NCBI GenBank assembly: GCA_964460615.1
Contig: CAYWPX010000004.1
Coordinates: 83,116-147,115 of the forward strand
Length of the DNA: 64,000 nt
Source of the DNA: an uncultured Planctomycetia bacterium
GTDB taxonomy: Bacteria; Omnitrophota; Gorgyraeia; CAYWPX01
Reading direction: 5' to 3'
Shown here: positions 15,338 through 52,487 of the stretch, in pieces
Layout of the letters: each line of letters begins with the position of its first letter
How positions within the stretch are numbered: the stretch's first letter is position 1
The notes under the pieces: model-generated
What the model saw: the letters and a program-made list of their open reading frames with translations, nothing else
Database searches by the model: none
Told to the model about the DNA's origin: nothing
Program-made: the position numbers and the translations under genes

Positions 15338-15354
15338 TTAAACCTCCTTAATGG

Positions 15355-15404: not shown

Positions 15405-15410
15405 GAATTA

Positions 15411-15481: not shown

Positions 15482-15511
15482 TTATCTTAATTGGTCCCTT
15501 TTTAGGGACGA

Positions 15512-16237: not shown

Positions 16238-16297
16238 TGGTTTTTCTCTTTTTTAATTTTTCGATGTACTATGTACGAAGTACGATATACTGTTTTT

Positions 16298-17158
16298 CTA
16301 CACCCATTCTTCGCTTAATATTTCTCCTTCAATGCTCACAACGATAGCTTTAACCGGAATTTTCCTTTTTGCCCGGCTGGCCGCTGATTTCGCAAGATTC
16401 AACAAACCGCCACAACACGGAACCTCCATAATCATTACGGTAATGGTATTTATCTTCGCATCATCTATCAGCTGAATAATTTTTTCTTCATATATTTCAA
16501 GCCCTTCGTCAAGTTTCGGGCATGCTATTGCCAGAGATTTACCTTTTAAAAAACCGGTATGAAAATTTCCCAGGGCGTATGCCACGCAGTCTGCCGAAAG
16601 TACTACATCGGCATTCTTAAAATATGACGCTCCCGGATTAACTAAATGCAGTTGCACCGGCCATTGCCTGAGCTTTGATTTTACATCTATTTTTTCATCT
16701 ATGGGTGCCGATGAAACATCCTTTTTTCTAAAATCCATTGCCTTTGATCCCGGGCAAGGCGAAAAACCGTGTGCATGCATAGATCTTATCCCTTCATTTT
16801 CTTTTAACGGGTTTTCCAAATTATTTTCTTCCAGGTATTTAATAGCTTCTTTTAAATATTCTGACTCATTATGGTCTTTTAAATGCAAAAGGTGAGCAAT
16901 CATGACATTTTTACCCTGTTTTACGATATTAGCCATAACCTTAGATTCATCGTACTTTTCTGCAACTCTCTCCTCTATATATATAGCGCCCAGGGGGCAA
17001 TGCCCGATACAAGCACCCAATCCATCGCAAAATAAGTCGCTTATTAGCCTCGCCTTTCCATCAATTATCTGGAGCGCCCCTTCAGGACAATTGGGGATAC
17101 AACTGCCGCAACCGTTGCACTTTGTTTCATCAATGTTAATTATTTTTCTTTTTGACAT
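16298..17158 (-). CDS. 4Fe-4S dicluster ferredoxin-domain protein with C-terminal CCG-like Cys motif
   Basis: CNGCGSCIPNCP and CDGLGACIGHCP then C-x35-CCGG (half CCG-domain-like); start abuts stop of the Rrf2 gene. Confidence 0.55.
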   Translation of the reverse strand: MSKRKIINIDETKCNGCGSCIPNCPEGALQIIDGKARLISDLFCDGLGACIGHCPLGAIYIEERVAEKYDESKVMANIVKQGKNVMIAHLLHLKDHNESEYLKEAIKYLEENNLENPLKENEGIRSMHAHGFSPCPGSKAMDFRKKDVSSAPIDEKIDVKSKLRQWPVQLHLVNPGASYFKNADVVLSADCVAYALGNFHTGFLKGKSLAIACPKLDEGLEIYEEKIIQLIDDAKINTITVMIMEVPCCGGLLNLAKSAASRAKRKIPVKAIVVSIEGEILSEEWV

Positions 17159-17566
17159 CTAGCCCTCATTATTTATAAGAGACCCTATACTTACACCTTT
17201 TAACTCATCAAATACTTTCTTTTCTATAGAATCAATTTTCTTTTTCAAAGCACAGGTAGCTCTGTTAGGACAAAGCTTTTTTTTGAAAAAACACTCATTA
17301 AGCCTGAGTCTTCCCTGAAAGATTTGTATCAGGTCCGTGATCAGGATTTTTTTGGCCGGCCTTACCAGCTTAAATCCGCCGCCTATTCCCTTATAAGACG
17401 CGAGCAGACCCGCTTTATTCAGTTTCTGAAGTATCTTCCTTAAAAATGGCCTTGGTATCTTGAGCGTCTTAACCATCTCCGCAACGCTTACGAGCCTGTC
17501 CTCAGAACTTGCCATATACGAAACCGCTCTTACGGCATAATCTGTATCTCTTTTAATTAATTTCAT
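17159..17566 (-). CDS. Rrf2-family transcriptional regulator (IscR/NsrR-like, three-Cys Fe-S site)
   Basis: N-terminal wHTH (DYAVRAVSYMA...), C-terminal NECFFKKKLCPNRATC. Confidence 0.85.
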   Translation of the reverse strand: MKLIKRDTDYAVRAVSYMASSEDRLVSVAEMVKTLKIPRPFLRKILQKLNKAGLLASYKGIGGGFKLVRPAKKILITDLIQIFQGRLRLNECFFKKKLCPNRATCALKKKIDSIEKKVFDELKGVSIGSLINNEG

Positions 17567-27022: not shown

Positions 27023-27790
27023 TTAATTTGAAATTAACTCTAAGGATGATTTTTTAACCCATCCTGTTTTACCGTCATATCGAATTACTTTAGACCAAGA
27101 ATTTGAGTTTTCAATAACCTCCACTACGCTCCCCTGCGGGATCGCAAAAAAATTCGTAGCGCCGTCAATAGGTTCAAATTTGGCGGACACATTATCTAAG
27201 AGTACTACAGCGTCATTCTTTAAATGAACGGCCTTTTCATAAAAAACATACACTCCTAAAGACAAAAATAACAGCAAGATGACCGTTACTAAGCGCGACA
27301 CCTTGGCAAATCTGATAAAATATACCCCTAAAATAAAAACAAACACAGTAAGGATATAGAGAATAAAAAGAAAAATTGTTAAACCATCGATAGAAAAAAT
27401 CCCTGAGATCCTGGATAGTATTTTTTCGTACCAAATCATCGTATTATATTCATCGTGAAGGCCTAAGACCCCTTTTAAATATTCATAATTAGAATTTAGT
27501 TCGGGGTCGTTCGGCATAAGGCGTTTTGCTCGGATATAATATAATGCGGCTTTACCGAAATCACTTTTTTTAAAATACGCATTGCCGATATTATAATAAA
27601 GATTGCCTGATTCAAAGCCGTTTGATAGGATTTTTTCGTATTCTTTTATAGCATCAGCGTATTTCCCCTCCTGATACAAAAGGTTTCCCCTGAAAAATAG
27701 CGATGTCGGGGTATCTTCATTTTCATCAGCAAAACTGACAGAAATAAAAACTAACAGGAAGAATATCACAAATATTATTTTTTTACCCAT
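27023..27790 (-). CDS. batE: BatE-like protein (TPR repeats plus C-terminal SH3b domain)
   Basis: signal peptide, TPR region, TM segments, C-terminal SH3-like; last gene of Bat operon. Confidence 0.55.
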   Translation of the reverse strand: MGKKIIFVIFFLLVFISVSFADENEDTPTSLFFRGNLLYQEGKYADAIKEYEKILSNGFESGNLYYNIGNAYFKKSDFGKAALYYIRAKRLMPNDPELNSNYEYLKGVLGLHDEYNTMIWYEKILSRISGIFSIDGLTIFLFILYILTVFVFILGVYFIRFAKVSRLVTVILLLFLSLGVYVFYEKAVHLKNDAVVLLDNVSAKFEPIDGATNFFAIPQGSVVEVIENSNSWSKVIRYDGKTGWVKKSSLELISN

Positions 27791-27880
27791 TACTTTTTCC
27801 TTAATTTTATCGTAGTAAAGCTTGTTTCTTTGCTATGAGCCCTGCCTGCCGGCAGGCAGGTATGAGCTAAACCGCAGCGG

Positions 27881-29707
27881 CTAAACTTTTGATCTCTGTA
27901 AATTATCAATAACCTCTTCCAGCGTCCTTAGCGATAAAGACATATCTTCTTTTGTAATACCTGCCGAAGCATATCTTGCAAGATCACAATTCTTGAACAA
28001 TTCTCTTATCTTGTTTAAAATATCGGTATCTATTTTAGCTTTAGTTAAAATATCGTCAACCACATTTGCTGTTATACCTTTGGACGCGAGATGAAACCTG
28101 TCCCCAAGATAACCTTGAAGCGCTTCAAATAAGACATCGTAAAACTTAGAAGATGCTCCTTCCCGCATCAGGGACCTTAGTTTCTTTATCTGGACTTTTG
28201 CAATTCTGGGGGCGACAAGTTTTCTGGCATACCTCACATCCAATCTCAATTTTTCGTTTCTTTTATTCAAAAGATAAAAAATTAGTGCTAACAGGGCCGG
28301 TAGTACCAGGATTATTAAAAATAGGGTCTTTTTGTAGATCTCATTATTCCGTCTTTTAAAATCCCCGGGGTATTCTTTAATATACAAAATATCCTTCCCG
28401 AATACCTCATCCTTTTCCGAAATAACTGAGGGTGCCTTGTTTTCAACGATCTTGATACTTTCTTCCTTGTCAGATTTTGTAACCTTGATCAGGAATGGGC
28501 CGCGTGTGATAGTCTGGTATATACCTTTTTTCGGATTAAAAAAACTGAAGCTTATCTGCGGAATGTTGCCCACCACGGGGCTTTTGGGAAGCAAGATCTG
28601 CTCAAATTCTTTCATATTGGGCGAGCTTTTGGAAGAAGGCTCATAGGCCTTAAACCCATCCTCTATTGAAAGTTTGGGAGCAGTAACGGTACTAAAATTT
28701 CCTTCTCCTTTAATAGACATTTTTAAAGTAATGGGATCTCCGACCTTAACCTCTTTTGGGCCATAAGTCACATCGAAGTCAAAATCACCGATTGCTCCGT
28801 TAAAAGAAGACGGCTTGCCGGTCTCAGGTAATTGTTCGATATTAATATTTAATTCCTTAGAGTTAAGGTCCAATGGCTCAATGTCATAATTACCGAAAAA
28901 TCCTCCCATGAAATCATCATCAAAGAAATCGTCAAAACCGGACGGGTATCTACGCTGAGATTTTTTTCTTTTCAAAAGATTGCACTTAATATTTGCCGGC
29001 CCGATACTAAGTTGGCCTGTGCGTGTCGCGAATATATTGGTTTTGAACTCTATAACGTCATAAACATCACTGCCTATGGATTCCTTATATTGCATAGGCC
29101 TATCAAATTCACCCGTTGAAAAGCCTTCGTGATGAAATTCGGGATATTGGATATCTTTTAGGGCAAGATTGTTCACGTACAATTTGATCGATAGAGGTAT
29201 GGATTCATTCAGATATGCCCGGGATTTGCCTGTCTCCATTATAACAAATATCCTGTCGTCAACGCCCTCGGTTATGGCGGCCGACGACTGTGATGATTGT
29301 TTCTTTGGCGGGTCCGAAACAGGTCCGCTAACAACCTCAAGCGTAACCTCGTTGGATGTATAATTATTGCCATCTGAAGAAAATGTGATCGGGCCGATAT
29401 TAAAAACTCCGACTTTTAGAGGTGTTAGTTGGTAGGAATAAGTCACAGAGCTTGAGACCTGGCCGTTTATAACGGACATCCTTGTAGCCGAACCGGCATA
29501 ACTTACTCTCAAGCCTTCTCTATCAGGAAGATCGGGGGCCTTGGCATCTTTGTCAGGAAAATTAAGGTTTAACTCAACACTTTTGCCAAGCGAAACCTTA
29601 TTTTTACTTAATGCCGCCTCAAAATTAATATCCTTAGCATAGGCTAAGCCTGGACCCACTAAAAACACTGCTATTAATAATATATATATTTTTAAGTATC
29701 TAATCAT
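27881..29707 (-). CDS. batD: BatD-like oxygen-tolerance protein
   Basis: 608 aa, signal peptide, repeated beta-rich ectodomains, single TM near C-terminus; position after batC. Confidence 0.65.
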   Translation of the reverse strand: MIRYLKIYILLIAVFLVGPGLAYAKDINFEAALSKNKVSLGKSVELNLNFPDKDAKAPDLPDREGLRVSYAGSATRMSVINGQVSSSVTYSYQLTPLKVGVFNIGPITFSSDGNNYTSNEVTLEVVSGPVSDPPKKQSSQSSAAITEGVDDRIFVIMETGKSRAYLNESIPLSIKLYVNNLALKDIQYPEFHHEGFSTGEFDRPMQYKESIGSDVYDVIEFKTNIFATRTGQLSIGPANIKCNLLKRKKSQRRYPSGFDDFFDDDFMGGFFGNYDIEPLDLNSKELNINIEQLPETGKPSSFNGAIGDFDFDVTYGPKEVKVGDPITLKMSIKGEGNFSTVTAPKLSIEDGFKAYEPSSKSSPNMKEFEQILLPKSPVVGNIPQISFSFFNPKKGIYQTITRGPFLIKVTKSDKEESIKIVENKAPSVISEKDEVFGKDILYIKEYPGDFKRRNNEIYKKTLFLIILVLPALLALIFYLLNKRNEKLRLDVRYARKLVAPRIAKVQIKKLRSLMREGASSKFYDVLFEALQGYLGDRFHLASKGITANVVDDILTKAKIDTDILNKIRELFKNCDLARYASAGITKEDMSLSLRTLEEVIDNLQRSKV

Positions 29708-29749
29708 TTTGTCTAATTCCCTAACCCCTTAACCCTACACCCTCTTATC

Positions 29750-30652
29750 TTACCAATTCTTTATTACTTCAGGATAATACTTCCTCTCGCCTTCATCCTC
29801 AAGCTTGCCTCTAACTTCATCGCTTTCAGGAAGCCCCTTAAGGATCATTTCGGCTTCCTTTTTGGACATCTCTTTAGGCTCGCCTTCTTCGTAGCGCTCT
29901 GTTTCTTCTTGTCCTTTTTGGCCCTCTGTATTTTTTTGCGTCTGGGGTTCTTTATTCTCTTCAGATTCTTTTTTCTCATCCTTATTCTTTTCTTCAGAAT
30001 TCTTTTGCTCTTTCCCGGATGAACCCTTGTCCTCTTTATCCTCACTTTGCTGAGGTTTTTGTACTGAAGAACCTCCTTGCTGGCCATCCTGATTTTGTTC
30101 TTTTTTCTGCTCCTTGTCTTTTTCCTTATTCTGCTGGCTCTTCTTCTCGGACTCTTCTTTTTTTAATTTTTCTTCCAAAAGAGCGATCTTTTTTTGGGTA
30201 AATTCATAATTAAATTTTGCATCTTTATCCCGGTCGTCCAGGTCTATAGATCTTTTGTAATACCCAAGGGCATCTTTCAAGATATTGATCGATCCCTTTA
30301 GGTCTGTTTTTTCTTTGCCTTCAGCTTCCCTGAATTTGCTGTTGGCCAGGTTATAATTGGCCTGTGATTCAAATTGTTTATCTTTACTTAATAAGCCTTT
30401 TTCAAACAAACCGGATGCTTTGTCGAATTGATCTTTTTTGTATGTAGCGGCACCTTTGCCGAAATTTATTTCCGGGGAATCGGGTTTTTTCTCTAAGGCC
30501 TTATCATAAAGCTCGATCGCTTTATCATATTCGCCCTTATTATAAAGCGAATTTGCTTTATTGGCAATGTTTGTATCATCCTGGGCAAACAATGGATAAG
30601 CCGCCACTAAGCTTAAGGTTGTGAATATAATAACTATTTCAATTTTTTTCAT
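29750..30652 (-). CDS. batC: BatC-like TPR protein with long K/E/Q-rich low-complexity tail
   Basis: signal peptide, TPR repeats, ~130-aa KE-rich tail. Confidence 0.6.
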   Translation of the reverse strand: MKKIEIVIIFTTLSLVAAYPLFAQDDTNIANKANSLYNKGEYDKAIELYDKALEKKPDSPEINFGKGAATYKKDQFDKASGLFEKGLLSKDKQFESQANYNLANSKFREAEGKEKTDLKGSINILKDALGYYKRSIDLDDRDKDAKFNYEFTQKKIALLEEKLKKEESEKKSQQNKEKDKEQKKEQNQDGQQGGSSVQKPQQSEDKEDKGSSGKEQKNSEEKNKDEKKESEENKEPQTQKNTEGQKGQEETERYEEGEPKEMSKKEAEMILKGLPESDEVRGKLEDEGERKYYPEVIKNW

Positions 30653-30694
30653 TTTTTATAGCTTTTCTTTTGACTATGAACCATGAGCTATGAG

Positions 30695-31744
30695 CTACGA
30701 ACTAAACTTTTTCCTATCCCCCACCAATAGCTCGATTAATAAAATCACTAACCCTATCCAAAGAGGTATCTGGAATTTTTCGTTATAACGCTTAAGCATT
30801 TTTGATTCAAGTTCTCTTTTTTCCATTTTAGAGAGCCTGTCTCTATATATCAGATCCAAACCAAATTCCGTTGGACTTGACCTGACATATGTACCGCCGG
30901 TAGCCAGAGCGATTTTCTGCAAGGTTTCTTCGCCAAGCCTTGATTTTACAACATTACCGGATCTATCCTTCAAAAAACCCATTGACCCATCAGACTGGAT
31001 AACAGGGATGAGATCCCCCTCTTTTGTGCCTATCCCGATAGTATAAATTGTAATACCGTCAGCTTTTGCAATTTCAGCTTCCTTGATAGAATCCCCTTCC
31101 ATGTCCTCACCGTCAGTGATTATAACTAAAACTCTGAATTTCTTTTCTGTATTAACAAAGCTCTTTATGGCGTTTTTGATAGCGCTTGTGATATTTGTTC
31201 CTTCCCTCGGGATAGTATTTGTGTCAATACTATCTAGTGTAAGCAAGAACCCGCCATAGTCTACGGTTAAGGGGCATTCAAGAAATGACGAACCGGCAAA
31301 CGCTACTAGCCCGACACGATCCCCTTTTAGATTGCTCACAAGATCTCTTATGGCTAATTTTGATCTTTCAAGGCGGTTTGGTTTTACATCTTCAGCAAGC
31401 ATGGACTTTGAAGTATCAAGCGCGATAAGAATATCCAAACCCTTCCTTTTTACTTCTTCATATTTGAAACCCCATTGCGGCCTTAGTACCGCTATCAATA
31501 AAAAAGAAATACCGATAATCGTAAGAATAATTTTTATCTTCTGTCTTGATCTATCTAAAGACGCTGTAAGTTCTTTAAGAACGTCTTTATCGGCAAAATT
31601 CTCCAGCGCCTTAATTCTTTTTTTCCAGGCCCACACGAAAAATAGAACTAATAAAATTAGCGCTGATATTGCATATATTATTAGATTTTGTTCTTGAAAA
31701 CGCATATATATCCAATGTTTTTTGCCACATGCCTCAAGCTCCAA
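30695..31744 (-). CDS. batB: BatB-like von Willebrand factor A protein
   Basis: MIDAS motif DTSKSM, two N-terminal TM, C-terminal TM. Confidence 0.8.
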   Translation of the reverse strand: MELEACGKKHWIYMRFQEQNLIIYAISALILLVLFFVWAWKKRIKALENFADKDVLKELTASLDRSRQKIKIILTIIGISFLLIAVLRPQWGFKYEEVKRKGLDILIALDTSKSMLAEDVKPNRLERSKLAIRDLVSNLKGDRVGLVAFAGSSFLECPLTVDYGGFLLTLDSIDTNTIPREGTNITSAIKNAIKSFVNTEKKFRVLVIITDGEDMEGDSIKEAEIAKADGITIYTIGIGTKEGDLIPVIQSDGSMGFLKDRSGNVVKSRLGEETLQKIALATGGTYVRSSPTEFGLDLIYRDRLSKMEKRELESKMLKRYNEKFQIPLWIGLVILLIELLVGDRKKFSS

Positions 31745-31787
31745 GCTAAATATTTAGCTTGAGACCTGAAGCCTGTAGCAGCTATTG

Positions 31788-32786
31788 TTATGGTATTTTC
31801 CTAAACACCGTATTTGATAACAGTATCTCAATAAATAATAAAATTACCCCCGGCAAAAGAAATAAAATAAATAGCTCCCTATACTCCATATATCCTTTTT
31901 CTTCAATAGGTGTCCTCTCCAACCGGTCAATATCCTGATAAATTTTTTTAAGACTTTCCGTATCCGTAGCACGGTAATATTTACCGCCTGTTATATCCGC
32001 TATTTTCTGTAAAGACTCCTCATCAAGGTCCACTTTTAACATCTGGTAGGATTTGCTCCCAAAAATATCCTGTACCGGATATGGCACCAGCCCCTTGGAG
32101 CCGGCGCCAATAGTGTAAACCTTGATATTCAGGGCCTTTGCCGCCTCTGCTGCGGTAAGAGGCGATATATTCCCTGTATTATTCCTGCCGTCGGTAAGAA
32201 GTATGACGATTTTGCTTTTGGCTTTTGTATCTTTAAGTCTTTTAAGGGCCGTGGCTAACCCTGTCCCGATTGCAGTGCCATCTTCGATCATACCGGCATG
32301 AATTCTTTCCAGGTTCTGACTAACCCAGCCATAATCAAGAGTGAGGGGTGAAACGGTATAGGCCCTTGCGGCGAATGTAACAACGCCGATCCTGTCATCA
32401 TGCCTTCCCTCGATAAATTTTTTGACAACGTCTTTTATTACTTCGATCCTTGCAAGGCGCTGGCCCTTTATCGTGAAATCCTCCGCCAGCATACTGGTAG
32501 ACGAATCCAGCAAAAGCGCGATATCGACCCCTTCCCTTTCTATTTTTGACTCCGCTATAGGAAATTGCGGCCTTGCCAAAGCAAATATGATCAGGATAAA
32601 AGCCACTAATTTTAAATAAACGAGTTTGGTGCCAAGCCGGATCTTTAAAGAAGGCTTGAGATTATCCAGGAGTTCCCCTTCGGAAAATTTCAAACCTACA
32701 CCTTGGCTTTTTTTCCTGTTTAAAAGGAATATGAGTATGATAAAAGGTATCAAGAATAATATCTGAGGATCTCTGAAAAAAATCAT
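31788..32786 (-). CDS. batA: BatA-like von Willebrand factor A protein
   Basis: MIDAS motif DSSTSM, N-terminal TMs. Confidence 0.8.
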   Translation of the reverse strand: MIFFRDPQILFLIPFIILIFLLNRKKSQGVGLKFSEGELLDNLKPSLKIRLGTKLVYLKLVAFILIIFALARPQFPIAESKIEREGVDIALLLDSSTSMLAEDFTIKGQRLARIEVIKDVVKKFIEGRHDDRIGVVTFAARAYTVSPLTLDYGWVSQNLERIHAGMIEDGTAIGTGLATALKRLKDTKAKSKIVILLTDGRNNTGNISPLTAAEAAKALNIKVYTIGAGSKGLVPYPVQDIFGSKSYQMLKVDLDEESLQKIADITGGKYYRATDTESLKKIYQDIDRLERTPIEEKGYMEYRELFILFLLPGVILLFIEILLSNTVFRKIP

Positions 32787-33712
32787 TTTTGTTTTCCTTC
32801 TACACTCACAATTTTGGTTTCATCGATAAACCCCTTAGCCGAATTAAACGTTGCAACACTTTCGGGTTCTCCCGGGATATATTTGGCAAATTTAACCATA
32901 TCGCAGCAGTTCAAAAATTGCTGTAAAAGCTCTTTATGCCCAGCCGTAAGAGAGTCCAGTGATTTCGCCTTAGCCATAAATTCTTCCGTTGTCATATCCG
33001 GCGCCCTTAGGCTGAACCTTGCTTCTATATATTGCCTTATGATATCTGAGATCTCAACAAAGAACTCCTTAACAAATCCTTTAGCAATATAATCTTTTTT
33101 TCTTAACGCTTCGAGTCTTTCATAGGCTATCTCGTGAGGAAGTTTTACTTTTATTATGGCCTTAAATATTTTTTTTCTTTTAATATAGATAAAGATCAGG
33201 GCTATTAAAAGCGCCGTTACCAGAACAATGATCAGCACCAATTTATTGAGTTTACCTTTTAGGCTCACCGGGCCTTTTATGTCACGGATATCCTTGGAAT
33301 CCTTAAACTCATCTAAAACACTTTTTACCTCGACACTTTGGCTACTGATCTTGTACGCTTTCCAATCGGATCCACCGGGATTTTTGTATTTAATCTCCAG
33401 TTCGGGGATTGTATAATTCCCCGGTTTAAAAGAATCCAAAAGATACCATTTTTTTATGTATTTTTTTCCTAGAAATAAATTCTCTTTTATTCCCGAATCC
33501 ACTATGCTTAGATCCCCCAATGTTTCATAGATTTCGGGAAAATCGATCTCCAGTGATTTATCGGCTTTGATATCTATGTTGAATTTGATCTTTTCGCCTA
33601 TTAAAACAGATTTTTTGTCAATATGTGCCGATGCGCTGATCATTGGATCAGCAGAAGCTAAATTTCCAAAGAATAACACGAATAAAATAATTAAAAATAT
33701 CTTTATTCTCAT
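32783..33712 (-). CDS. membrane protein of Bat operon (DUF4381-like position)
   Basis: 309 aa, signal peptide plus one TM; between DUF58 and batA. Confidence 0.45.
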   Translation of the reverse strand: MRIKIFLIILFVLFFGNLASADPMISASAHIDKKSVLIGEKIKFNIDIKADKSLEIDFPEIYETLGDLSIVDSGIKENLFLGKKYIKKWYLLDSFKPGNYTIPELEIKYKNPGGSDWKAYKISSQSVEVKSVLDEFKDSKDIRDIKGPVSLKGKLNKLVLIIVLVTALLIALIFIYIKRKKIFKAIIKVKLPHEIAYERLEALRKKDYIAKGFVKEFFVEISDIIRQYIEARFSLRAPDMTTEEFMAKAKSLDSLTAGHKELLQQFLNCCDMVKFAKYIPGEPESVATFNSAKGFIDETKIVSVEGKQK

Positions 33713-33716
33713 ATGA

Positions 33717-34628
33717 TTAACGTAATTTTTTCTCTCTTTCTCTGAAAAACCTGTAGAGGCTTTTTGAATAAGGTATATCCGTCCTTATGTCGATATTATC
33801 CACATTGAGAGAATTAAATATTTTTTTTCTTTCTTCAAACTTTTTGTGAGAGCTGGCTTTATAACCGGCCCTGACCGATCTATTGGAAGTATCTACTAAA
33901 TAACTTCTCCCTGTTTCTGCGTCATTTAATCTTATCATTCCCACATCAGGCAATTCAAGCTCTCTCGGATCTCGTATAGTAACGGCAATACAATCATGGC
34001 GTTTGTTGGCAATGGAGAGCATTTTTTTGTAGTTGGTCTTGGAATAAAAATCTGAAATAATAAAACTAACTGCGCTGTGATTGGTAACGCTGTTAAAATA
34101 ATCCAAGGCGCCCGCAATATCTGTGCCTTTACCCTGGGGCTTATAATACAGGGCCTCTCTGATTATCCTAAGAACATGGCTTGGGCCTTTTCTTGGCGGA
34201 ATGAATTTCTCAATTTTATCGGTAAAGATCAACAATCCGACCTTGTCGTTATTTCTTATCGCTGAAAAAGCAAGGACTGAACAAAGCTCTGCCGCCAATT
34301 CGCTTTTGAGCTGGTGAATGCTTCCAAACCCGGTTGAAGCAGAGACATCGAGTAAGAGCATTACCGTAAGTTCCCTCTCTTCAACAAATTTCTTTACGTG
34401 CGGGTGCCCGGTCCTTGCAGTAACGTTCCAGTCTATGGAACGGATCTCGTCCCCAGGCAGATACTCCCTCACCTCATGAAACTCCATGCCGCGGCCTTTA
34501 AAAACACTCTGGTACTGCCCGGCGAAGACATTGGTAACCATTCGGGAGGTCGTGATCTCTATTAATCGGATTTTTTTTAGGATCTCTTTTGGGATCATTT
34601 TAAAGCCCGTATTTCGCACTTCGCACAT
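33717..34628 (-). CDS. DUF58 (VWA-like) protein, MoxR partner
   Basis: LLLDVSASTGFG VWA-like block; follows moxR. Confidence 0.8.
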   Translation of the reverse strand: MCEVRNTGFKMIPKEILKKIRLIEITTSRMVTNVFAGQYQSVFKGRGMEFHEVREYLPGDEIRSIDWNVTARTGHPHVKKFVEERELTVMLLLDVSASTGFGSIHQLKSELAAELCSVLAFSAIRNNDKVGLLIFTDKIEKFIPPRKGPSHVLRIIREALYYKPQGKGTDIAGALDYFNSVTNHSAVSFIISDFYSKTNYKKMLSIANKRHDCIAVTIRDPRELELPDVGMIRLNDAETGRSYLVDTSNRSVRAGYKASSHKKFEERKKIFNSLNVDNIDIRTDIPYSKSLYRFFREREKKLR

Positions 34629-34708
34629 CGTACATCGTTAAAATTAGTCTTTTTGCAAAATACGATATACGATGTACTATGTACCTGCCTCGCCCATGGG
34701 CGAGGCGT

Positions 34709-35716
34709 TTAAGGTACTTCCACTTCATCAAATATTCTTTTAATTATATCGTCCGAAGTTTTCTCTTCGGCTTCAGCTTCATAACTTGCTATAACCCTGT
34801 GCCTAAGGACATCGGGACCTATGGATTTGACATCTTGAGGAGTGACATAGCCTCTTCCTTGAATAAATGCATATGCCTTTGAGGCCAACGTCAGATATAT
34901 ACTCGCCCTTGGAGAAGCGCCATATTGGATCAGCCCTTCAAGATCGTTTAACTTGTATTTTTTCGGGTCTCTTGTGGCAAAAACTATATCAAGGATATAC
35001 TTTTCTATTTTTTCGTCAGTATATATCTCGTCTATAACTTGCCTGGCCTTTATAATTTGGTCCGGCGTAACTACGGGGTTAACCCCTATTTTTTTATCGG
35101 TATAGCCCATTCTCTTTAAAATTCTATGTTCTTCATCAAGACTGGGATAAGTGATATTGACTTTTAGCATAAACCTATCAACTTGGGCCTCCGGAAGAGG
35201 ATAAGTTCCCTCCTGTTCTATCGGATTTTCGGTTGCCATAACGAGAAACGGATCATCAAGTTTATAAGTATGTTCGCCTATGGTTACCTGCCTTTCCTGC
35301 ATCGCCTCCAATAATGCGCTCTGGACTTTTGCAGGAGCCCTGTTTATCTCATCAGCCAGGATGATATTAGAAAATATCGGGCCTTTTTTAGTAGTAAAAT
35401 TCCCGTCTTTCGGATTAAAGATAAGAGTTCCTATTAGATCGGCCGGAAGCAAATCCGGAGTGAACTGTATCCTCTGGAATTTAGTTTTTATTGCCTGGGA
35501 AAGAGTTTTTATCGAAAGTGTTTTGGCAAGGCCGGGGACACCTTCAACAAGTATGTGGCCATTTGCCAATAACCCCACCAAAAGTCTTTCAATAAGATAC
35601 CTTTGGCCTACTATTACCTTTTCAATTTCGCTTATGAGCGTATAGACAAATACGCTTTCTTTTTTTATCTTCTCATTTATCGCTGTTATGCCTTCTCCTA
35701 TCATAATATACCTCAC
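34709..35716 (-). CDS. moxR: MoxR-family AAA+ ATPase
   Basis: Walker A GVPGLAKT, Walker B/sensor, 335 aa. Confidence 0.9.
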   Translation of the reverse strand: MRYIMIGEGITAINEKIKKESVFVYTLISEIEKVIVGQRYLIERLLVGLLANGHILVEGVPGLAKTLSIKTLSQAIKTKFQRIQFTPDLLPADLIGTLIFNPKDGNFTTKKGPIFSNIILADEINRAPAKVQSALLEAMQERQVTIGEHTYKLDDPFLVMATENPIEQEGTYPLPEAQVDRFMLKVNITYPSLDEEHRILKRMGYTDKKIGVNPVVTPDQIIKARQVIDEIYTDEKIEKYILDIVFATRDPKKYKLNDLEGLIQYGASPRASIYLTLASKAYAFIQGRGYVTPQDVKSIGPDVLRHRVIASYEAEAEEKTSDDIIKRIFDEVEVP

Positions 35717-36015: not shown

Positions 36016-36771
36016 TTAATTAAAAACTGTTCTTTTGACGATCTCTTTAACGGTATTAAAAACATCTGAATTCCCCGGAAGTTCGAGAATTGACTTAGCT
36101 TCCAGGCTAAATTTTTCTATATCTTTACTAAAAAGAATATCTCCGCCAAAAGGTATGCCGGAAGATTTTATCTCACCGTCTAATTCTTTAATATCACCCT
36201 TTACCTTATTTATTATTAGATACACCTTATCCAGCTTAATACCAATTTCCCTGGCAAGATCGTAAATTCTTTTTGCTGACCTGATACCTATAACACTAAA
36301 ATCACTTACAATAAAAAGAATATCTATCTTACGGGCGGTTTTTCTGGAAATGTGCTCCATCCCGGCTTCATTATCCATAACGCTAAATTTATAATCATCC
36401 GTAAGATCTTTTACTATATCCCTTAAAAGGCTATTGGCATAGCAGTAGCAACCGGGGCCCTCGGGCCTTCCCATAGTTAGTAACGAGAGATTACCCTTTT
36501 CCATAATTGACTCTTCTATTTTATAACGAAGATATTCGTTTTTTGTCATTCCGGCAGGGATCTCGTCCTTTTTATCTATCATCTCTTCACAAACACTTGA
36601 GAGGGTGTCTTCCACCTTAAGCCCGAGCATCTCAGGAAGCGTAGAATTAGGATCGGCATCGACAGCCAATACGGAGTTCTCTTTGTCGGCTATCAGAGAC
36701 TTTATCACAAGACTTGAGAAAGTAGATTTCCCCGTCCCGCCTTTTCCTGTTATTGCTATTATTTTTGACAT
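36016..36771 (-). CDS. cooC: CooC/AcsF-type Ni-insertion accessory ATPase (MinD/ParA fold)
   Basis: AITGKGGTGKST deviant Walker A, CxC metal site (GPGCYCYAN); directly downstream of acsB. Confidence 0.85.
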   Translation of the reverse strand: MSKIIAITGKGGTGKSTFSSLVIKSLIADKENSVLAVDADPNSTLPEMLGLKVEDTLSSVCEEMIDKKDEIPAGMTKNEYLRYKIEESIMEKGNLSLLTMGRPEGPGCYCYANSLLRDIVKDLTDDYKFSVMDNEAGMEHISRKTARKIDILFIVSDFSVIGIRSAKRIYDLAREIGIKLDKVYLIINKVKGDIKELDGEIKSSGIPFGGDILFSKDIEKFSLEAKSILELPGNSDVFNTVKEIVKRTVFN

Positions 36772-36860: not shown

Positions 36861-39056
36861 TTACATTATTGATTCCATCGTAAGCGCCGGATGATTTACC
36901 TTTTCGAGATACGGCAAAAGCTCATCAACAGTGGTAGCTACCGTTTCATCGGCGATTTTATTAATAAAATCCGGGTCCCCTATTTCCTCGCATCGCTTTT
37001 TGAGTTTACCGGCTAAAGATTCTTTTAATTCTTTGGGCATCCAGACGATCCTTTTAAGCCCGCCTTCGGCAGAGATAAATTTCTTGCTTGTTATATAAAG
37101 CCTGCCTACCCCTAAAAATCCCGGTACCTGCTCACCCCCGCCGACAGATCCGGCAAGGGTGGTAAATTTCATACCGCATGGCGTCATACCGTTAAAATTC
37201 CTGTCTACTATCATTACACCATTTGCTTCAGGGATCAATGCAACTATACATTCAAAACATCCGCAGCTTGTTGTAGGAGCGTCCATAATAGAGTAAAGGC
37301 TCATGCGCGAAGTTGTCTTATTGGATTTATTATACATATATTCATTTATCGTTTCCCACTCGCCTTTTTTCTCGTCTATGGTCTTTCCTTTTTTGACCGG
37401 CTCATTGCCGCCTGTGGGGTTTATCTCTGAGGCCGCTTTTCCATCCAGCCAGTTATATGCTCCGCAAAGCCCAAGCCTTTCGGGGCTTATAATACAGATA
37501 TGATTGGGGGCGAATGACTGACAAAGTTTGCATGAATAATAGACATCAACACTTTCGTCTGTCATATGGGCGATCCTTGCGTCGCGCTCATCAAAAGCCT
37601 TCAATGCCTCGGGAAGGCGCTTCAAGATATCCTCTTCTTTTGTATAAATAGTGACCTGCACCTTATCAACAATCGAAGGAAAATCCTTTAGCAGTATCGA
37701 ATGCATGATCACACCTAGGTGTCTTAATTTAAAACCTGCCTTCACAGCGTCTTTACTTATTCTTATCCAGTTCATATCGCGCTGGCCGATATGCATTACA
37801 CCCATCGCTTCGCTTAAAGATGTATGAATGCGCCTTTCCAGGACGGGTTCAAAATCACTCTGCATCTTTCTTCCGGCTACATCGATAACCAAAGCAAACG
37901 GCAAAGCTTTTTTATTTGCACAATCAGCTTCGCTTATCTCAGGGCCTATAACTTCGATCTTGCCGTTTTCAACTTCCTCAAGCTTTCTCATCCTCACATA
38001 TTCAAACGCTTTTGAGGCTTTTCCCCCCATCTCGATGCAAGTCTCTTCTTTTCTTACTCTCTCCCCTTCGAACGCCGGGCCATAAGGAACAGGCACGTCG
38101 GGCTTATCGATAGTAACTTTTATGCCTCTTACTTCAATTCCTTTTTCTACTATTTTATCAACACTTACAGGCGATACAACATGCTCATATTTACACACGC
38201 CTGTTACAAGTATCTGGTCTATATCTGTATCCGCAATTACCGGAAATCCGAAATTTATCGCCCCGGCTGCAACACTAGCCTTAAGGTCGTCTACCGGTCC
38301 AAGCGCGAGGACAAATGCATTGACCCTGTTTTTATTATAAAGAAGTATATCATGAGCCTCTTTTGGCCCTTTTGGCGTTATCCCGCCGAATGTCATAGCG
38401 GCTCTTACGGCAAAATTAATAGCATAAATAGTAGAAGTAAGATCTTTCCCGTATGGTATCAAAAAAGAATCGAGGCCCATTTTTATATTTTCAGCTTCAA
38501 GTTGTTCGGCAATGTTCACGCCGTTAGATTCTCCTGACATAAAAACAAGTATTCTTCTTTCCTGAAGTTTCCTGATAATTTTTACGGCGTCTTTTGATGT
38601 AGGAGCGGCCCCCACTATTGCGGCAAACCCGGACATCCTTCCGTCAACCAGCCTTATGCCCTGTTCCCTTAAGACCCCATCCGGAGTAAACCCGGACCAT
38701 AGACCTGTAGCCGGATTATTGCCTCTAGCGTATTTTAAAGCTTCTATTATTTCAGCGGCAAAAAGCGTAGCCATCCCCGAATCAAGCGCAGGACCTAAAT
38801 AAGGCGTATAGCAACTATCCGTCGGATCATCATGTAAAAGTGTTTTGGCAAAATTTATTATTTGAACAAGATCTGATGCTTTCTGGGCCTTAAGAGCAAG
38901 CATTGCATAGGCAAAAGGAAGATAATAATTTGTATCCGGGAAAGCAACGAGCGCATCGAGCCCTTTTTCTTTGATAAATAGGTTAAGGTCACTCTCTGCG
39001 AGGTTAACCACTTTACGCGCACCGCTAATCGCAAATCCTGCTATTACTTTGGACAT
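36861..39056 (-). CDS. acsB: acetyl-CoA synthase catalytic subunit (CODH/ACS alpha, A-cluster)
   Basis: 731 aa; A-cluster block TSCGCFECIVALIPEANG, FAPNHICIISPERLGLCGA, C-terminal ADETVATTVDELLPYLEKVNHPALTM; full N-terminal CODH-interaction domain. Confidence 0.92.
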   Translation of the reverse strand: MSKVIAGFAISGARKVVNLAESDLNLFIKEKGLDALVAFPDTNYYLPFAYAMLALKAQKASDLVQIINFAKTLLHDDPTDSCYTPYLGPALDSGMATLFAAEIIEALKYARGNNPATGLWSGFTPDGVLREQGIRLVDGRMSGFAAIVGAAPTSKDAVKIIRKLQERRILVFMSGESNGVNIAEQLEAENIKMGLDSFLIPYGKDLTSTIYAINFAVRAAMTFGGITPKGPKEAHDILLYNKNRVNAFVLALGPVDDLKASVAAGAINFGFPVIADTDIDQILVTGVCKYEHVVSPVSVDKIVEKGIEVRGIKVTIDKPDVPVPYGPAFEGERVRKEETCIEMGGKASKAFEYVRMRKLEEVENGKIEVIGPEISEADCANKKALPFALVIDVAGRKMQSDFEPVLERRIHTSLSEAMGVMHIGQRDMNWIRISKDAVKAGFKLRHLGVIMHSILLKDFPSIVDKVQVTIYTKEEDILKRLPEALKAFDERDARIAHMTDESVDVYYSCKLCQSFAPNHICIISPERLGLCGAYNWLDGKAASEINPTGGNEPVKKGKTIDEKKGEWETINEYMYNKSNKTTSRMSLYSIMDAPTTSCGCFECIVALIPEANGVMIVDRNFNGMTPCGMKFTTLAGSVGGGEQVPGFLGVGRLYITSKKFISAEGGLKRIVWMPKELKESLAGKLKKRCEEIGDPDFINKIADETVATTVDELLPYLEKVNHPALTMESIM

Positions 39057-39162
39057 TTATTTTACCTCCAAATTATTTTTAGTACTTCGTCGTTCGTACT
39101 TCGTACATCGTTTTTTATTTTTCTTTTTCGATATACGCTATGCGATGTACGATGTACGGTTT
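39057..39162. repeat. GTACG-family hairpin cassette between cooS-like gene and acsB
   Basis: arm1 GTACATCGTACATCG, loop GAAAAAGAAAAATAAAAAACG, arm2 CGATGTACGAAGTAC; same architecture, different arm sequence with preserved pairing. Confidence 0.7.
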
Positions 39163-40392
39163 TTAATACATCATCGGCGCCAGCTTTAAAGCGCTTCGTT
39201 TTTTATCAATATGATCTATCATTATACGAGCTGCTTTTACCGGATCAGGTTCAAAGGCCCATTTACCGCCTAAGAGCCCTTCAATATCTTTTGTTATAAG
39301 ATTGACTACGTCCTTGCTTTCAATAATAGTCGACGGCGCGCCAAATACAACTAAAGCCCCGCTTGAAACAAAATACCATCCTATTGAAAGCATCTCGGCC
39401 GGCACAAGGTCAAAACTTGCTCCTGCTATCGGCAGATCATCTATACCGGCAAGCCCGGCCTCTTTTGCTATAGCGGCACATGCCAGAAGGATCCTCGAAT
39501 TATCACTCATTAAGCCCATATCAATGACGGGAGGGATCCCGACTGCTTTGCAGACTTCTTTAAGGCCCTTACCGGCTAAATCTTTGGCCTCGGGTTTAAA
39601 AAGCCCTGCTTTTACCGATTCGATTGAACATTTCCCGGTCTGGATAACCAGGCAATCATTTTTGATAAGTTCTTTTATCAATTTTACGCTGTCGGTACCG
39701 GCATTGGACGACGGGCTATCGCTTCCGGCAATCGCAGCAACACCTCTAATGCGCCCGTTAACTATATTATCAAGTAAAGGGACCAAAGAAGCCCTGAATT
39801 TCCCGCCCAGGTGGTATGGGATATTGTTCTCAGAGAATCCCGTTATATAATCATTACCTCCTACGGATTTCTTTGTAACTACCGGCATGCCGAAAATGAT
39901 ATCGCTTAATTCATTCTCTATCATGGCGCTTCCCCACCCCTCGGCAAGCGATGTCCTTATAATATTAGACGCTAGAGAGGCATCGTTTGGGTTTGATACT
40001 TTTGAAACGGCTAAGGCCGTTTCATCAATCTCTCTATTTATACCCCGCGGTATTGCATTAAGCTTTTTCCAGTAATCAGTTTGTTTTTTCAGAGCGCGCT
40101 TTGAAAAAATAAGGGCCGAGTCATCTTTTTTTTCAAATTCATTTAGCAATTTTGCCCCGAGCTCCATTGCGATTTCCGGATCTCTTTTATTCTCAGTAGA
40201 AATTAAAAATTCTATTGCTAGGCTTTTTAATTTCTCGGGACTTTTTATCGAAAGAGTTTTATCCAAGCCTTTTGCGATTGAAATAAGTTTATTTATAAGT
40301 TCTAAGGCTTTTTTAGAATGATTAGAAACCCCGCTTGCTGTAATACTTGCAACATCTTTTACGCTTACGCCTTTTGATTCCGTCTGTACCAT
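39163..40392 (-). CDS. degenerate CooS-like protein: homologue of C-terminal half of Ni-CODH lacking all C-cluster Cys/His ligands
   Basis: Aligns from memory with CooS C-terminal blocks: ASLAEGWGSAMIENELSDIIFG ~ ADGWGGSMIATEISDILFG; VIDMGLMSDNSR ~ VLHMGSCVDNSR; PIAGASFDLVPAEMLSIGW ~ PLVASAPECMSEKALAIGSW; cluster-ligand Cys replaced (CNN->SDSP, C->L, C->F); no N-terminal B/D-cluster domain. Confidence 0.65.
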   Translation of the reverse strand: MVQTESKGVSVKDVASITASGVSNHSKKALELINKLISIAKGLDKTLSIKSPEKLKSLAIEFLISTENKRDPEIAMELGAKLLNEFEKKDDSALIFSKRALKKQTDYWKKLNAIPRGINREIDETALAVSKVSNPNDASLASNIIRTSLAEGWGSAMIENELSDIIFGMPVVTKKSVGGNDYITGFSENNIPYHLGGKFRASLVPLLDNIVNGRIRGVAAIAGSDSPSSNAGTDSVKLIKELIKNDCLVIQTGKCSIESVKAGLFKPEAKDLAGKGLKEVCKAVGIPPVIDMGLMSDNSRILLACAAIAKEAGLAGIDDLPIAGASFDLVPAEMLSIGWYFVSSGALVVFGAPSTIIESKDVVNLITKDIEGLLGGKWAFEPDPVKAARIMIDHIDKKRSALKLAPMMY

Positions 40393-40462
40393 ATCTTTTC
40401 CTTTTTATTTAATATTTTTTGGTTTTTTCGAAATACGATGTACTATGTACGAAATACTGCTT

Positions 40463-41641
40463 TTATAGCCCCAAATCTGTCGGGGCCCTCCCGATAGACT
40501 CCAATAGCTTAGTAACTTCTTCGATCCTTTCTTCTATGCTTGATTCGGTGCCTTTTTTTTCCGGGTATATGGAATAGAGTTTCTGGTATTTTACAGGTGT
40601 CATATCAATCATCAGAGAGTTTCCGCCGGCCAATAACCCTTTTTTAGCTCCTTCAAATTTATCAAGAGTCTCCAGGGCTGTCGTAACAAGGATCCTTGCA
40701 TCAGGATATAGCATTCTGGCACGGGCAATAGACGTAAGCGCCATATCAAGACTTGGAAGAGAAGCGTCTTTTAAGGGAGTATCTTTGTGCGAAATAAAAG
40801 GGCCGAATGAGAACATCTCTGAATGAAGTTTATTCGTAAGATGGATATCTCTTAATATATCCTCCTCGGTCTGGCCGGGTAAACCCACTAAAAAACCGGT
40901 CATTATAAGATATCCCATCCTGTGTAGCTCTTCGATGAGTTCGATCCGTTTTTTTAGATTTGACCCGGGCTTTAAAGAAGAATAGAGATCTTCTTTTGAG
41001 GTCTCGAACCTTAGAAGGATCCCCCTTGCACCTCGTTCGTAGAGTAATTTATAAGTAGATAAATCTCTTTCACCTATACTCATTATTAAAAGAACATTGC
41101 ATCGCGACCTCACCTTATCAATAATATCCATTAATATTTCATCATTATACCACATGTCCTCGCCAGATTGTAGGACTAATGCCTTAAAATTATACTTATT
41201 AACAGCCATATCAGAAGCCTCGACTATCTCATCCACCGACATGCGGTACCTAATTAAATTATCATTACTGTTTCTTATGCCGCAATAGAGGCAGTCCTTA
41301 ACGCAATAGTTTGAAAAATTTATAATACCGTGTACACAGCATGAGTTGCCGGTATGTTCGTGTCTAGTCTTGTTGGCCAGCTGGTAAAGGGTCTTTGCTT
41401 CGCTGGTAAGCCTCATGTCTGTTTCCTGCAACTCGTTAAATAATTCCTTCCAGTCACTAAGGACGGCTTTGGCTTTTGTTTCTTCTACCCTTTCGATGAT
41501 AAACCCGCCCTGGGCAAGGACATAATCGCCTATTGCAAGTTTACAAAAGTCATTCCTGGCTAACTTTCTTTCGCCAAAATAGTCTATCGTAACCAGCTTA
41601 TCTCTTATCTCTACAACAACCCCTGGTATTGCGTAGCACAT
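40463..41641 (-). CDS. HypC/HupF-like domain fused to HydE-type radical-SAM maturase
   Basis: N-terminal ~75 aa MCYAIPGVVVEI...GDYVLAQGGFII matches HypC; remainder ...VHGIINFSNYCVKDCLYCGIRNSNDNLIRYRMSVDEIVE...LVLQSGED...GLPGQTEEDI...TPVKYQKLYSIYPEKK tracks HydE block by block incl. CxxxCxxC. Confidence 0.8.
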   Translation of the reverse strand: MCYAIPGVVVEIRDKLVTIDYFGERKLARNDFCKLAIGDYVLAQGGFIIERVEETKAKAVLSDWKELFNELQETDMRLTSEAKTLYQLANKTRHEHTGNSCCVHGIINFSNYCVKDCLYCGIRNSNDNLIRYRMSVDEIVEASDMAVNKYNFKALVLQSGEDMWYNDEILMDIIDKVRSRCNVLLIMSIGERDLSTYKLLYERGARGILLRFETSKEDLYSSLKPGSNLKKRIELIEELHRMGYLIMTGFLVGLPGQTEEDILRDIHLTNKLHSEMFSFGPFISHKDTPLKDASLPSLDMALTSIARARMLYPDARILVTTALETLDKFEGAKKGLLAGGNSLMIDMTPVKYQKLYSIYPEKKGTESSIEERIEEVTKLLESIGRAPTDLGL

Positions 41642-51666: not shown

Positions 51667-51734
51667 AATTAGCACATCGACCTTCGTACATCGTACTTCG
51701 TATTTAGTTTTTGCTATGTACTAAGTACGATATA

Positions 51735-52487
51735 CTATGTACTGCCTTTAATCATCATCACCGACATCATCCTGCCGCAATCTCGGCCTTCTTTTCTATA
51801 AGAAAAGAATTCATCGCTCTGACAATAAGTACAAATTTTGGGATCAAAGATATTATCATCCGATACTCCCATATCTTTAAGCTGGGCTATATTGACGCCT
51901 GCCAGATCAAGATATAACTTGTTATTTTTTTCAAGGATAAAACCTGGAAAAATATCCCTCATTTCATTCCCCACCTCATAAGAACAGCTTCTTATGGAAG
52001 GGCCGAGCCATGTAAAAATATTACTTGGAACTGTACCGAACCTCTTTTTCATTGATTCAATTGTTTTAACTGCAATATTATCTTTTGTGCTGCGCCAGCC
52101 GGCATGCACTACAGCAATAGCCTTGGTTTTCTTATCCAGCAGGAATAGAGATAAACAATCAGCGGTAAAAACGGCTATAGGAACATCAGCCCTGTCGGTC
52201 ATTATAGCATCAAACCCAATTAACCTGTTATTATTTGAGATCGCTCCTTTTCCCCGGTCAGATTCATCCGCATAATATATATCCGATTTATGGACCTGCT
52301 CCGACGAAACCAGATCCTCATGATTTATACCAAGTATCCTAAGGAATTTTTTTCTGTCCGGTAGCGTATTGGAGGTATCGCCATGCGAAAATGACATATT
52401 CCCATCTAGCTTTAAACTAAAGGAAACGATAATATCGTTAAAGACTGACTCTATATTTTGACCTATTTGGGTATTATTATTAAGCAT
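51735..52487 (-). CDS. pgeF: YfiH/PgeF family purine nucleoside phosphorylase / peptidoglycan editing factor (Cu-oxidase_4)
   Basis: VVHAGWRS, FTADCL conserved His/Cys blocks; 250 aa. Confidence 0.8.
   Translation of the reverse strand: MLNNNTQIGQNIESVFNDIIVSFSLKLDGNMSFSHGDTSNTLPDRKKFLRILGINHEDLVSSEQVHKSDIYYADESDRGKGAISNNNRLIGFDAIMTDRADVPIAVFTADCLSLFLLDKKTKAIAVVHAGWRSTKDNIAVKTIESMKKRFGTVPSNIFTWLGPSIRSCSYEVGNEMRDIFPGFILEKNNKLYLDLAGVNIAQLKDMGVSDDNIFDPKICTYCQSDEFFSYRKEGRDCGRMMSVMMIKGST

Follow-up and report, generated by a model that had tools for sequence, protein, structure and literature searches.

Bacterial acetyl-CoA synthase (ACS) contacts its partner, the nickel carbon monoxide dehydrogenase (Ni-CODH; here CODH), solely through the A1 domain (PMC11474084). 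CODH binds A1 via a loop and helix alphaA of its Rossmann fold 2 (Rossmann-2) in Clostridium autoethanogenum, the Moorella enzyme makes the ACS contact via N- and C-terminal extensions, the archaeal contact is made by Rossmann-2, and methanogens have the Rossmann-2 and helical domain of CODH in place of A1. From these structural observations, A1 has been proposed to originate from a duplication of the CODH Rossmann-2 (PMC11474084). A1 is reported to be needed for C-C cleavage (PMC12289521). Here, we examine a gene directly upstream of acsB in a 64,000-nucleotide (nt) stretch of DNA from an uncultured bacterium of the Omnitrophota (contig CAYWPX010000004.1, positions 83,116 to 147,115; this whole stretch is referred to as the window). 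The gene, here trCODH (39163..40392, minus strand), encodes a 409-amino-acid (aa) CODH-derived protein that consists of a helical domain and a Rossmann fold 2 and is without metal-cluster ligands.

The closest known proteins are the AcsA/CooS subunits of bacterial CODH/ACS, especially those of the C. autoethanogenum type (PDB 6YTT), and the 641-aa CODHs of Omnitrophota. Unlike these, trCODH has no B/D-cluster segment, no Rossmann fold 1, none of the six C-cluster ligands, and no catalytic Lys, and its locus is without the partner genes cooT, cooC (CODH type), cooF, and FNOR. Short members of the CODH family have been described before. The mini-CooS of Thermosinus carboxydivorans and clade G (~430 to 480 aa) is reported to keep all 11 Cys and the His ligands and adjoins cooF (Techtmann et al. 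2012, PMC3328121); trCODH is likewise short but ligand-free, adjoins acsB rather than cooF, and thus falls outside this group. An internal TGA codon in C. autoethanogenum AcsA, which is essential for autotrophy, yields a 44-kDa product beside a 69-kDa read-through form (PMC4895105). Like trCODH, the smaller form comes from a CODH gene linked to ACS and is reduced in length (~400 aa), but there a stop codon truncates the C terminus and can be read through, whereas the N-terminal and internal in-frame deletions of trCODH leave catalysis unrestorable. The ACS A1 domain shares the plan of a helical bundle plus a Rossmann fold (PMC11474084), yet trCODH is free-standing, derives recently from a catalytic CODH, and is only 12 to 14% identical to A1.

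A different precedent comes from Dehalococcoides mccartyi, which is reported to have ACS without CODH and an incomplete Wood-Ljungdahl pathway (Zhuang 2014, as related in PMC7005905 and PMC9324843), and for Dehalococcoides a cleavage of acetyl-CoA to methyl and CO is mentioned as a proposal (PMC7005905). The likeness would lie in an ACS that runs without CO2/CO interconversion. Metagenome-assembled genomes (MAGs) of Dehalococcoidales carry a Rossmann-1-less protein directly upstream of acsB, whereas the passages on D. mccartyi that we draw on call CODH simply absent. In the searched full-text literature, whose coverage does not extend to subscription papers, we found no account of a CODH partner of ACS that lacks both the ligands and Rossmann-1. 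Curated CODH censuses discard such proteins by length or ligand filters: one survey drops proteins of <550 aa or with cluster-residue deletions (PMC6344411), another drops those of <400 aa or with mutated ligands (PMC8776680), and a third demands >400 aa plus key clusters (PMC13056359).

Architecture, locus, and selection on trCODH

An initial sequence-only reading of the window, made from its letters and open reading frames (ORFs), had placed a 409-aa CooS-like protein at 39163-40392. The ORF is intact and lies exactly there on the minus strand; it is a single maximal frame, with its ATG at 40392 and stop at 39163, and no upstream extension is possible. The similarity to CooS held up as well. 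trCODH matches the Pfam Prismane family (PF03063) at 6.4e-58, the NCBIfam model TIGR01702 at 2e-70, and solved CODHs in the PDB at E-values down to 4e-68. Judged by these matches, trCODH is an unmistakable Ni-CODH homolog, although its TIGR01702 score of 238 bits is about half of the curated equivalog cut-off of 478. It shares the Prismane family with the hybrid cluster protein (Hcp), but the CODH model alone was detected in NCBIfam, with no Hcp model among the matches, and we do not count it as an Hcp. Pfam and NCBIfam scans found no DNA-binding or signaling domain in it.

trCODH had been said to align with only the C-terminal ~400 aa of CooS. Instead, the alignment to PDB CODHs shows two separate blocks, with ~160 aa excised between them. 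The block in the helical domain (residues 12-175) corresponds to CODH ~87-250 and that in Rossmann fold 2 (residues 182-402) to CODH ~413-628. A tblastn search of the window with P0003, a 641-aa Omnitrophota CODH, gave the same picture: P0003 75-236 and 403-637 match, and nothing between 236 and 403 matches here or elsewhere in the 64 kb. The helical domain (39868..40368, minus strand; residues 9-175, equivalent to CODH ~76-236) is not preceded by the ~75-aa N-terminal segment that carries the B/D-cluster Cys. All six of these conserved Cys columns are gaps in trCODH, as the sequence-only reading had it. At the junction (39850..39867; residues 176-181), the MAFFT and tblastn gap runs from P0003 ~237/244 to ~403, and the entire Rossmann fold 1 (~160 aa) is missing. 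Rossmann fold 2 (39166..39849; residues 182-409) ends in a conserved C-terminal tail, ...ALKLAPMMY. An AlphaFold2 (AF2) model also lacks Rossmann-1 and gives a template modeling (TM) score of 0.90 normalized on the query and 0.59 on the target; it predicts that the CODH fold is retained in the remaining domains.

None of the C-cluster ligands (1 His and 5 Cys) survives. The equivalents of His261, Cys295, and Cys333 are deleted rather than substituted, since the missing Rossmann fold 1 carried them. The three remaining ligand positions read Ser224 (39721-39723; GCDNP has become GSDSP), Lys254 (39631-39633; a Cys is shifted to 255), and Met295 (39508-39510). The claim that every ligand position is substituted is thus right as to the outcome, including GSDSP, but not as to the three deleted positions, and the Leu, Phe, and Asp proposed in place of the ligand Cys give way to Lys254 and Met295. 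Nor is the protein "cysteine-less": it has 4 Cys (247, 255, 281, and 305), none of them at a ligand position. The acid/base set (Lys563 and His93 of Carboxydothermus hydrogenoformans CODH-II; Lys556 in Desulfovibrio) is not complete either. The general-base Lys is Glu333 (39394-39396), and the HSDH motif, one of whose two invariant His would correspond to His93, reads HSKK, with His25 kept and the second His replaced by Lys28. We took the Desulfovibrio equivalents Cys448, Cys478, Cys519, and Lys556 from a direct count on the printed alignment; for the roles of Cys519, His266, Cys302, Cys340, and Lys556, we follow PMC6168284. From its sequence, we predict trCODH to be catalytically dead and unable to bind the NiFe4S4 cluster.

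The gene immediately downstream, acsB (36861..39056, minus strand), begins 106 nt from trCODH and encodes a 731-aa AcsB with A1, A2, and A3 (Pfam CODH_A_N, CdhC, and ACS_CODH_B_C; NF040764, 1018 bits). Its A-cluster motifs, C509-x2-C512...C and C598-G-C600, are intact, it is 67 to 79% identical across A1, A2, and A3 to AcsB of relatives with a full CODH, and its N-terminal CODH-docking domain (CODH_A_N/A1) is kept, as had been noted. Next comes a cooC/acsF-type P-loop NTPase gene of the nickel insertase family (36016..36771, minus strand; Pfam CbiA/AAA_31). Its product is 55 to 60% identical to the acsB-proximal CooC of the full-CODH loci L003 and L005 and 34 to 37% identical to their CODH-proximal CooC, so the surviving gene is the ortholog of the acsB-proximal, ACS-associated copy.

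Among full-length CODHs, the closest to trCODH come from Omnitrophota MAGs (P0002, P0003, and P0012; 641 aa), with 53 to 56% identity over the shared domains. Loci of these relatives read cooT-cooC-CODH-cooF-FNOR-acsB-cooC, and one runs on into acsC-RACo-cooC-acsD-acsE. In the window lineage, cooT, the cooC next to CODH, cooF, and FNOR have been lost from the locus, leaving trCODH-acsB-cooC (ACS type). Neither a second CODH nor acsC, acsD, or acsE turned up in Pfam scans of essentially all ORFs of the window. The sequence-only reading had trCODH exactly where acsA normally precedes acsB. It does directly precede acsB, but the nearest full-length relatives have cooF and FNOR in between, and gene order points to direct adjacency as a derived state. 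The term "paralogue" used for it is probably wrong: trCODH falls with the clade of ACS-linked CODHs of its own lineage (99% bootstrap) and therefore looks like a degenerated resident gene.

Among 5.8 billion proteins, the sole other sequence that covers the whole of trCODH is P0001 (429 aa, from two Logan assemblies), which is 70.6% identical to it and shares both deletions. A scan of the GTDB species genomes returned full-length CODHs only and no protein of the window type, and a scan of JGI metagenome contigs returned no further close relatives of this type. The P0001 locus (L001, a 12.7-kb contig) keeps the order trCODH-acsB-cooC, with the trCODH and acsB ORFs overlapping by 8 nt, and wider synteny extends to DctP, deaminase, PMT, Macro, and nitroreductase genes upstream and Dus and GNAT genes downstream. 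No second CODH was found on this contig.

We estimated selection by the Nei-Gojobori method between the window and the L001 genome. For trCODH as a whole, the proportions of synonymous (pS) and nonsynonymous (pN) differences are 0.65 and 0.21, giving a ratio of nonsynonymous to synonymous rates (omega) of ~0.17. Omega is ~0.24 for the helical domain (62% identical to P0001, 45% to full-length P0003) and ~0.11 for Rossmann-2 (78% identical to P0001), next to ~0.04 to 0.06 for AcsB (A1 ~0.06) and ~0.09 for CooC. Flanking housekeeping genes are 59 to 69% identical between the two genomes. Because the frame is open and pN is far below pS at such divergence, neutral decay is excluded, and we take trCODH to be a gene under purifying selection and no pseudogene. 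The ligands have followed a different course: of the three C-terminal ligand Cys, P0001 keeps two and trCODH none, so ligand loss came after domain loss and is still proceeding. The two proteins share two Cys, both non-ligand, and no further Cys/His constellation.

The best conserved stretches of trCODH are 195-220, 276-290, 344-357, and the C-terminal tail 394-409; the first, second, and last of these are also the longest runs identical to P0001. The tail is present in full-length relatives as well and could, on this conservation, be the relevant ACS contact of trCODH. We considered the 195-220 stretch as the ACS-binding element of the C. autoethanogenum type and rejected it, since the alignment of A1 with Rossmann-2 puts alphaA at ~230-243, a poorly conserved part.

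Recurrence of the Rossmann-1-less form upstream of acsB

HMMER, run exhaustively over 1.84 billion cluster representatives, identified ~20 other clusters (50% identity) of 360- to 530-aa proteins, which were aligned with MAFFT E-INS-i. Each matches trCODH in one contiguous stretch and hence is without Rossmann-1. Their excision boundaries cluster tightly, from P0003 ~237-254 to ~395-407, and trCODH falls within the same bounds. The C-terminal ligand triplets vary (CSC, CDA, SSD, FNG, and -YY), and some proteins keep the N-terminal B/D Cys: P0168 (Thermodesulfovibrionales), P0179, and P0181. These three (464, 508, and 478 aa) retain all six B/D-cluster Cys, P0168 and P0179 also keep the three C-terminal ligand Cys, and they may correspond to the so-called mini-CooS. 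Names in public databases give little hint of the class. Members from Dehalococcoidales, "Candidatus Alcyoniella australis," and Thermodesulfovibrionales are each a "hypothetical protein" at NCBI, and P0125 is labeled "hydroxylamine reductase" at JGI.

In all nine distinct loci examined, of which the window is one, acsB follows directly downstream; they come from unrelated lineages, among them Dehalococcoidales, "Ca. Alcyoniella australis," and metagenomic lineages. Typical contexts are folD-acsD-trCODH-acsB-acsC(-acsE)-DUF3786 and RACo-cooC-acsD-trCODH-acsB-acsC-acsE; adjacency to acsB is thus constant in the other lineages, whereas adjacency to cooC is not. A second-lineage estimate of selection could not be had from L010 and L094/L095, whose genes are identical. 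The AcsB homolog downstream of P0286 (L091, 9311-10924) is 53% identical to window AcsB over 535 residues; that it carries no Pfam annotation is an artifact, since the last letters of the record are a run of N.

We compared the short proteins at positions conserved to 90% or more among 25 intact CODHs. Fifteen such sites are lost, comprising two His, three Cys, the V-D-N after the Ni-Cys, and an E..EK..I segment, and 22 are retained, namely structural Gly, Pro, and Leu. Loss of catalytic sites with retention of structural ones is the classic signature of a pseudo-enzyme. The idea in the sequence-only reading that a dead CODH relative is retained beside ACS gains from the selection estimate, from the loss of helper genes with the ACS-type CooC kept, and from this recurrence upstream of acsB.

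A bootstrapped neighbor-joining (NJ) tree of the shared domains (378 columns) bears on the number of origins. trCODH and P0001 pair at 100% and group with full-length CODHs of Omnitrophota and Elusimicrobiota at 99%; P0141 groups with the full-length P0131 and P0150 at 85%; and the Dehalococcoidia-type short proteins fall among 655-aa full-length CODHs, with weak NJ support. The singleton P0122 is ~71% identical to hundreds of these 655-aa Dehalococcoidia CODHs and 43% identical to trCODH. From the tree and the P0122 identities, the same domain has been lost by excision on at least three occasions; for the exact count, maximum likelihood with more taxa is called for, NJ being a modest method.

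Two further sets of sequences stand beside this class. A second degenerate type of 530 to 680 aa (P0121, P0127, P0129, P0139, P0142, P0145, and P0147) keeps Rossmann-1 and has lost the cluster Cys of the N terminus together with most ligands of the C-cluster; P0121, from Dehalococcoidales, is 56% identical to P0122, and such proteins may be intermediates toward the Rossmann-1-less form. A C-terminal tail, LGI(D/N)KxxER(V/K)L(Y/F/M)DMxxRRxLE, is common to P0105, P0121-P0123, P0125, P0128, P0131, P0141, P0148, and P0151. This Dehalococcoidia-type tail occurs both in full-length CODHs and in their ligand-less short derivatives, where it is kept even after all catalytic residues have decayed, and is a candidate for an ACS-binding extension of the Moorella type; the PDB alignment ends before the tail (GIDKxRERVLYDMxMRRxLE), whose homology to the Moorella extension is putative.

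In "Ca. Alcyoniella australis" (L009, 5559-6647; GCA_030765605.1), the acsA position is occupied by a 362-aa ligand-less CODH-like protein with E, N, and S at the ligand positions. This MAG has been described as encoding the carbonyl branch "CODH-ACS" (PMC9324843), a published call that may need checking.

Possible roles of trCODH beside ACS

We consider it probable that trCODH is the resident ACS-linked Ni-CODH of its lineage, reduced to a metal-free pseudo-enzyme that serves as a non-catalytic structural partner of ACS. Under this proposal, CO2/CO redox function would have been given up in an ancestor common to the window and L001 organisms. The B/D-cluster segment and Rossmann fold 1 would have been excised in frame, the leftover C-cluster ligands and acid/base residues would then have drifted, and the CODH-specific helpers (cooT, CODH-type cooC, cooF, and FNOR) would have been lost. 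Held by purifying selection, trCODH would bind the A1 domain of AcsB and keep it in its native context, and at the mouth of the former CO tunnel to the C-cluster it may act as a cap or a vent. With no CO2 reduction on board, ACS would either cleave acetyl-CoA to corrinoid-bound methyl and CO, as proposed for Dehalococcoides, or build acetyl-CoA from CO made elsewhere. What we infer here is that trCODH physically binds AcsB, that it acts at the tunnel, and which way ACS catalysis runs.

Several points weigh against this proposal. A partner is not obligatory for ACS, since the monomeric ACS of C. hydrogenoformans is stable and active alone, according to a citation in PMC9782325. The ACS-binding element of the C. 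autoethanogenum type (loop and alphaA after beta1) maps to trCODH ~224-243, the least conserved part of Rossmann-2 (52 to 57% identical to P0001, against 78% for the domain). The lineage is known from two sequences in the searched collections, and the selection estimate therefore comes from a single pair, with an approximate omega and dS near saturation. Moreover, the absence of CODH and acsCDE, and with it the "orphan ACS" of the sequence-only reading, covers the 64-kb window, and an intact CODH elsewhere in the genome, or a genome without the corrinoid protein, would shift the physiological reading.

One alternative is that trCODH is a decaying relic, a functionless CODH gene in the course of being lost whose ORF is open by chance. 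The stepwise loss of ligand Cys between P0001 (two kept) and trCODH (none), a helical domain that evolves faster than in intact CODHs, and the fact that most Rossmann-1-less variants are rare, lineage-specific, and near a local full-length CODH (P0122, ~71%) would all fit such a history. It is harder to square, however, with an ORF that stays intact in two genomes with nearly saturated synonymous sites at an omega of ~0.17 (0.11 in Rossmann-2), with an identity of 70.6% that equals or exceeds that of flanking housekeeping genes, and with in-frame deletions at domain boundaries that recur independently next to acsB in 9/9 loci. The conserved skeleton of structural Gly, Pro, and Leu speaks against an already disfavored relic too, which leaves it very unlikely in our judgment. 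Even harder to credit is a still-catalytic CODH, or a hybrid-cluster-type enzyme with another ligand set. Cluster types do vary in the Prismane superfamily, to which trCODH belongs, but of the two domains between which the C-cluster is sandwiched, one is missing, none of the 4 Cys is at a ligand position and only two are common to the ortholog, the general-base Lys is a Glu, and NCBIfam returns the CODH model alone, at half its cut-off, and no Hcp model.

Alternatively, trCODH could serve as accessory subunit to an intact CODH whose gene lies outside the window, for instance in a catalytic/dead heterodimer linking CODH to ACS; ACS would then not be orphaned. Several CODHs per genome are frequent (PMC13056359), the window covers 64 kb only, and a CODH-ACS carbonyl branch has been ascribed to "Ca. 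Alcyoniella australis" (PMC9324843), where a gene of this kind is present, although that ascription may itself count the pseudo-CODH. Yet the D-/B-cluster segment, through which the CODH dimer is formed and wired, is deleted, genes for CODH maturation and electron transfer are gone from the locus, and neither the window nor the L001 contig holds a second CODH; we regard this arrangement as quite unlikely. A new role apart from A1 docking, as an A-cluster assembly or maturation factor acting with the ACS-type CooC, a regulator that senses CO or redox state, or a carrier of another ligand in the emptied active-site cleft, also seems unlikely, if less so. trCODH, acsB, and cooC are conserved together, the fast-evolving ligand-loop region could mean a changed pocket, and clade D CODH proteins have been described as non-catalytic and possibly redox-sensing (PMC13056359). 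Against this stand the lack of a Cys/His constellation common to trCODH and P0001 beyond two non-ligand Cys, the lack of a DNA-binding or signaling domain in the scans of trCODH, and the other lineages, in which acsB is always adjacent and cooC only sometimes.

If the structural-partner proposal holds, it can be extended to the wider class, although we do so only tentatively: metal-free Rossmann-1-less remnants may be recurrent, convergent adaptors that keep A1 docked and the CO tunnel gated or vented, making a stand-alone ACS out of CODH/ACS. They would then mark Omnitrophota-like bacteria, Dehalococcoidia, Lernaellota, and others as running ACS without on-board CO2 reduction, and would replay in living lineages the proposed step from the CODH helical and Rossmann-2 domains to A1. 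That a dead CODH is kept by selection beside ACS in several independent lineages suggests that the CODH body serves ACS beyond CO supply, with A1 positioning, tunnel gating, and support of C-C cleavage as possible services, and a naturally metal-free partner makes such a role directly testable. Likewise, repeated in-frame excision of the same domain indicates that the helical domain and Rossmann-2 form an autonomous module; ACS A1 is built in the same way, a point in favor of its proposed origin by duplication.

There are also consequences for Wood-Ljungdahl capacity as it is inferred from MAGs, and a CODH/ACS specialist would find such a protein surprising. Pfam- or KEGG-level calls can count proteins of this kind as CODH and so arrive at a complete carbonyl branch where none exists, and at present the class is invisible or mislabeled. 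trCODH-type proteins could instead mark a Dehalococcoides-style metabolism, ACS without CODH, in uncultured phyla.

Other features of the window

The trCODH-acsB spacer (39057..39162, minus strand) contains a repetitive extragenic palindromic (REP)-like palindrome (39095-39158) and a GGAGG Shine-Dalgarno sequence before acsB, and it has no T-run terminator or terminator-like site. The palindrome is predicted to fold into a hairpin with a free energy of -23.4 kcal/mol (z -5.2). Its intergenic sequence, CGTACATCGTACATCG...CGATGTACGAAGTACG, has 13 matches in the window with at most 2 mismatches, against 0.03 expected; sites lie at 2582-2642, 16262-16284, 34622-34685, 39095-39158, 40436-40451, and 51685-51743. 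This raises the question as to whether the palindrome acts in mRNA stability or as a regulator site.

Directly upstream of trCODH, at 40463-41641 on the minus strand, lies a gene for a 392-aa HypC-HydE-like fusion, with a HypC/HupF domain at residues 1-62 followed by a HydE-like radical-SAM enzyme (TIGR03956, 252 bits, slightly below the cut-off of 254.6). An Fe(CN)2CO-carrier-type domain joined to an H-cluster-maturase-like enzyme is an unusual pair to find beside a CO-handling enzyme, and the fusion is missing from the orthologous locus L001. A photolyase gene is also located upstream of trCODH on the same strand. On the other side of the cluster, a MoxR-DUF58-VWA-BatA/BatD-TPR "aerotolerance" operon (27023-35716, minus strand) lies between cooC and dus. 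The L001 contig has only PALP and AIRS genes there, and the region downstream of the ACS cluster has therefore been remodeled.

Farther away, a hybrid cluster protein region (14051-17566, minus strand) has genes for an HD-domain protein, a ferredoxin, and an Rrf2 regulator nearby. Its Hcp gene (14051-15337) encodes a class-III-like protein of 428 aa (Prismane, 463 bits) and is a genuine second Prismane gene of the window, unrelated to trCODH.

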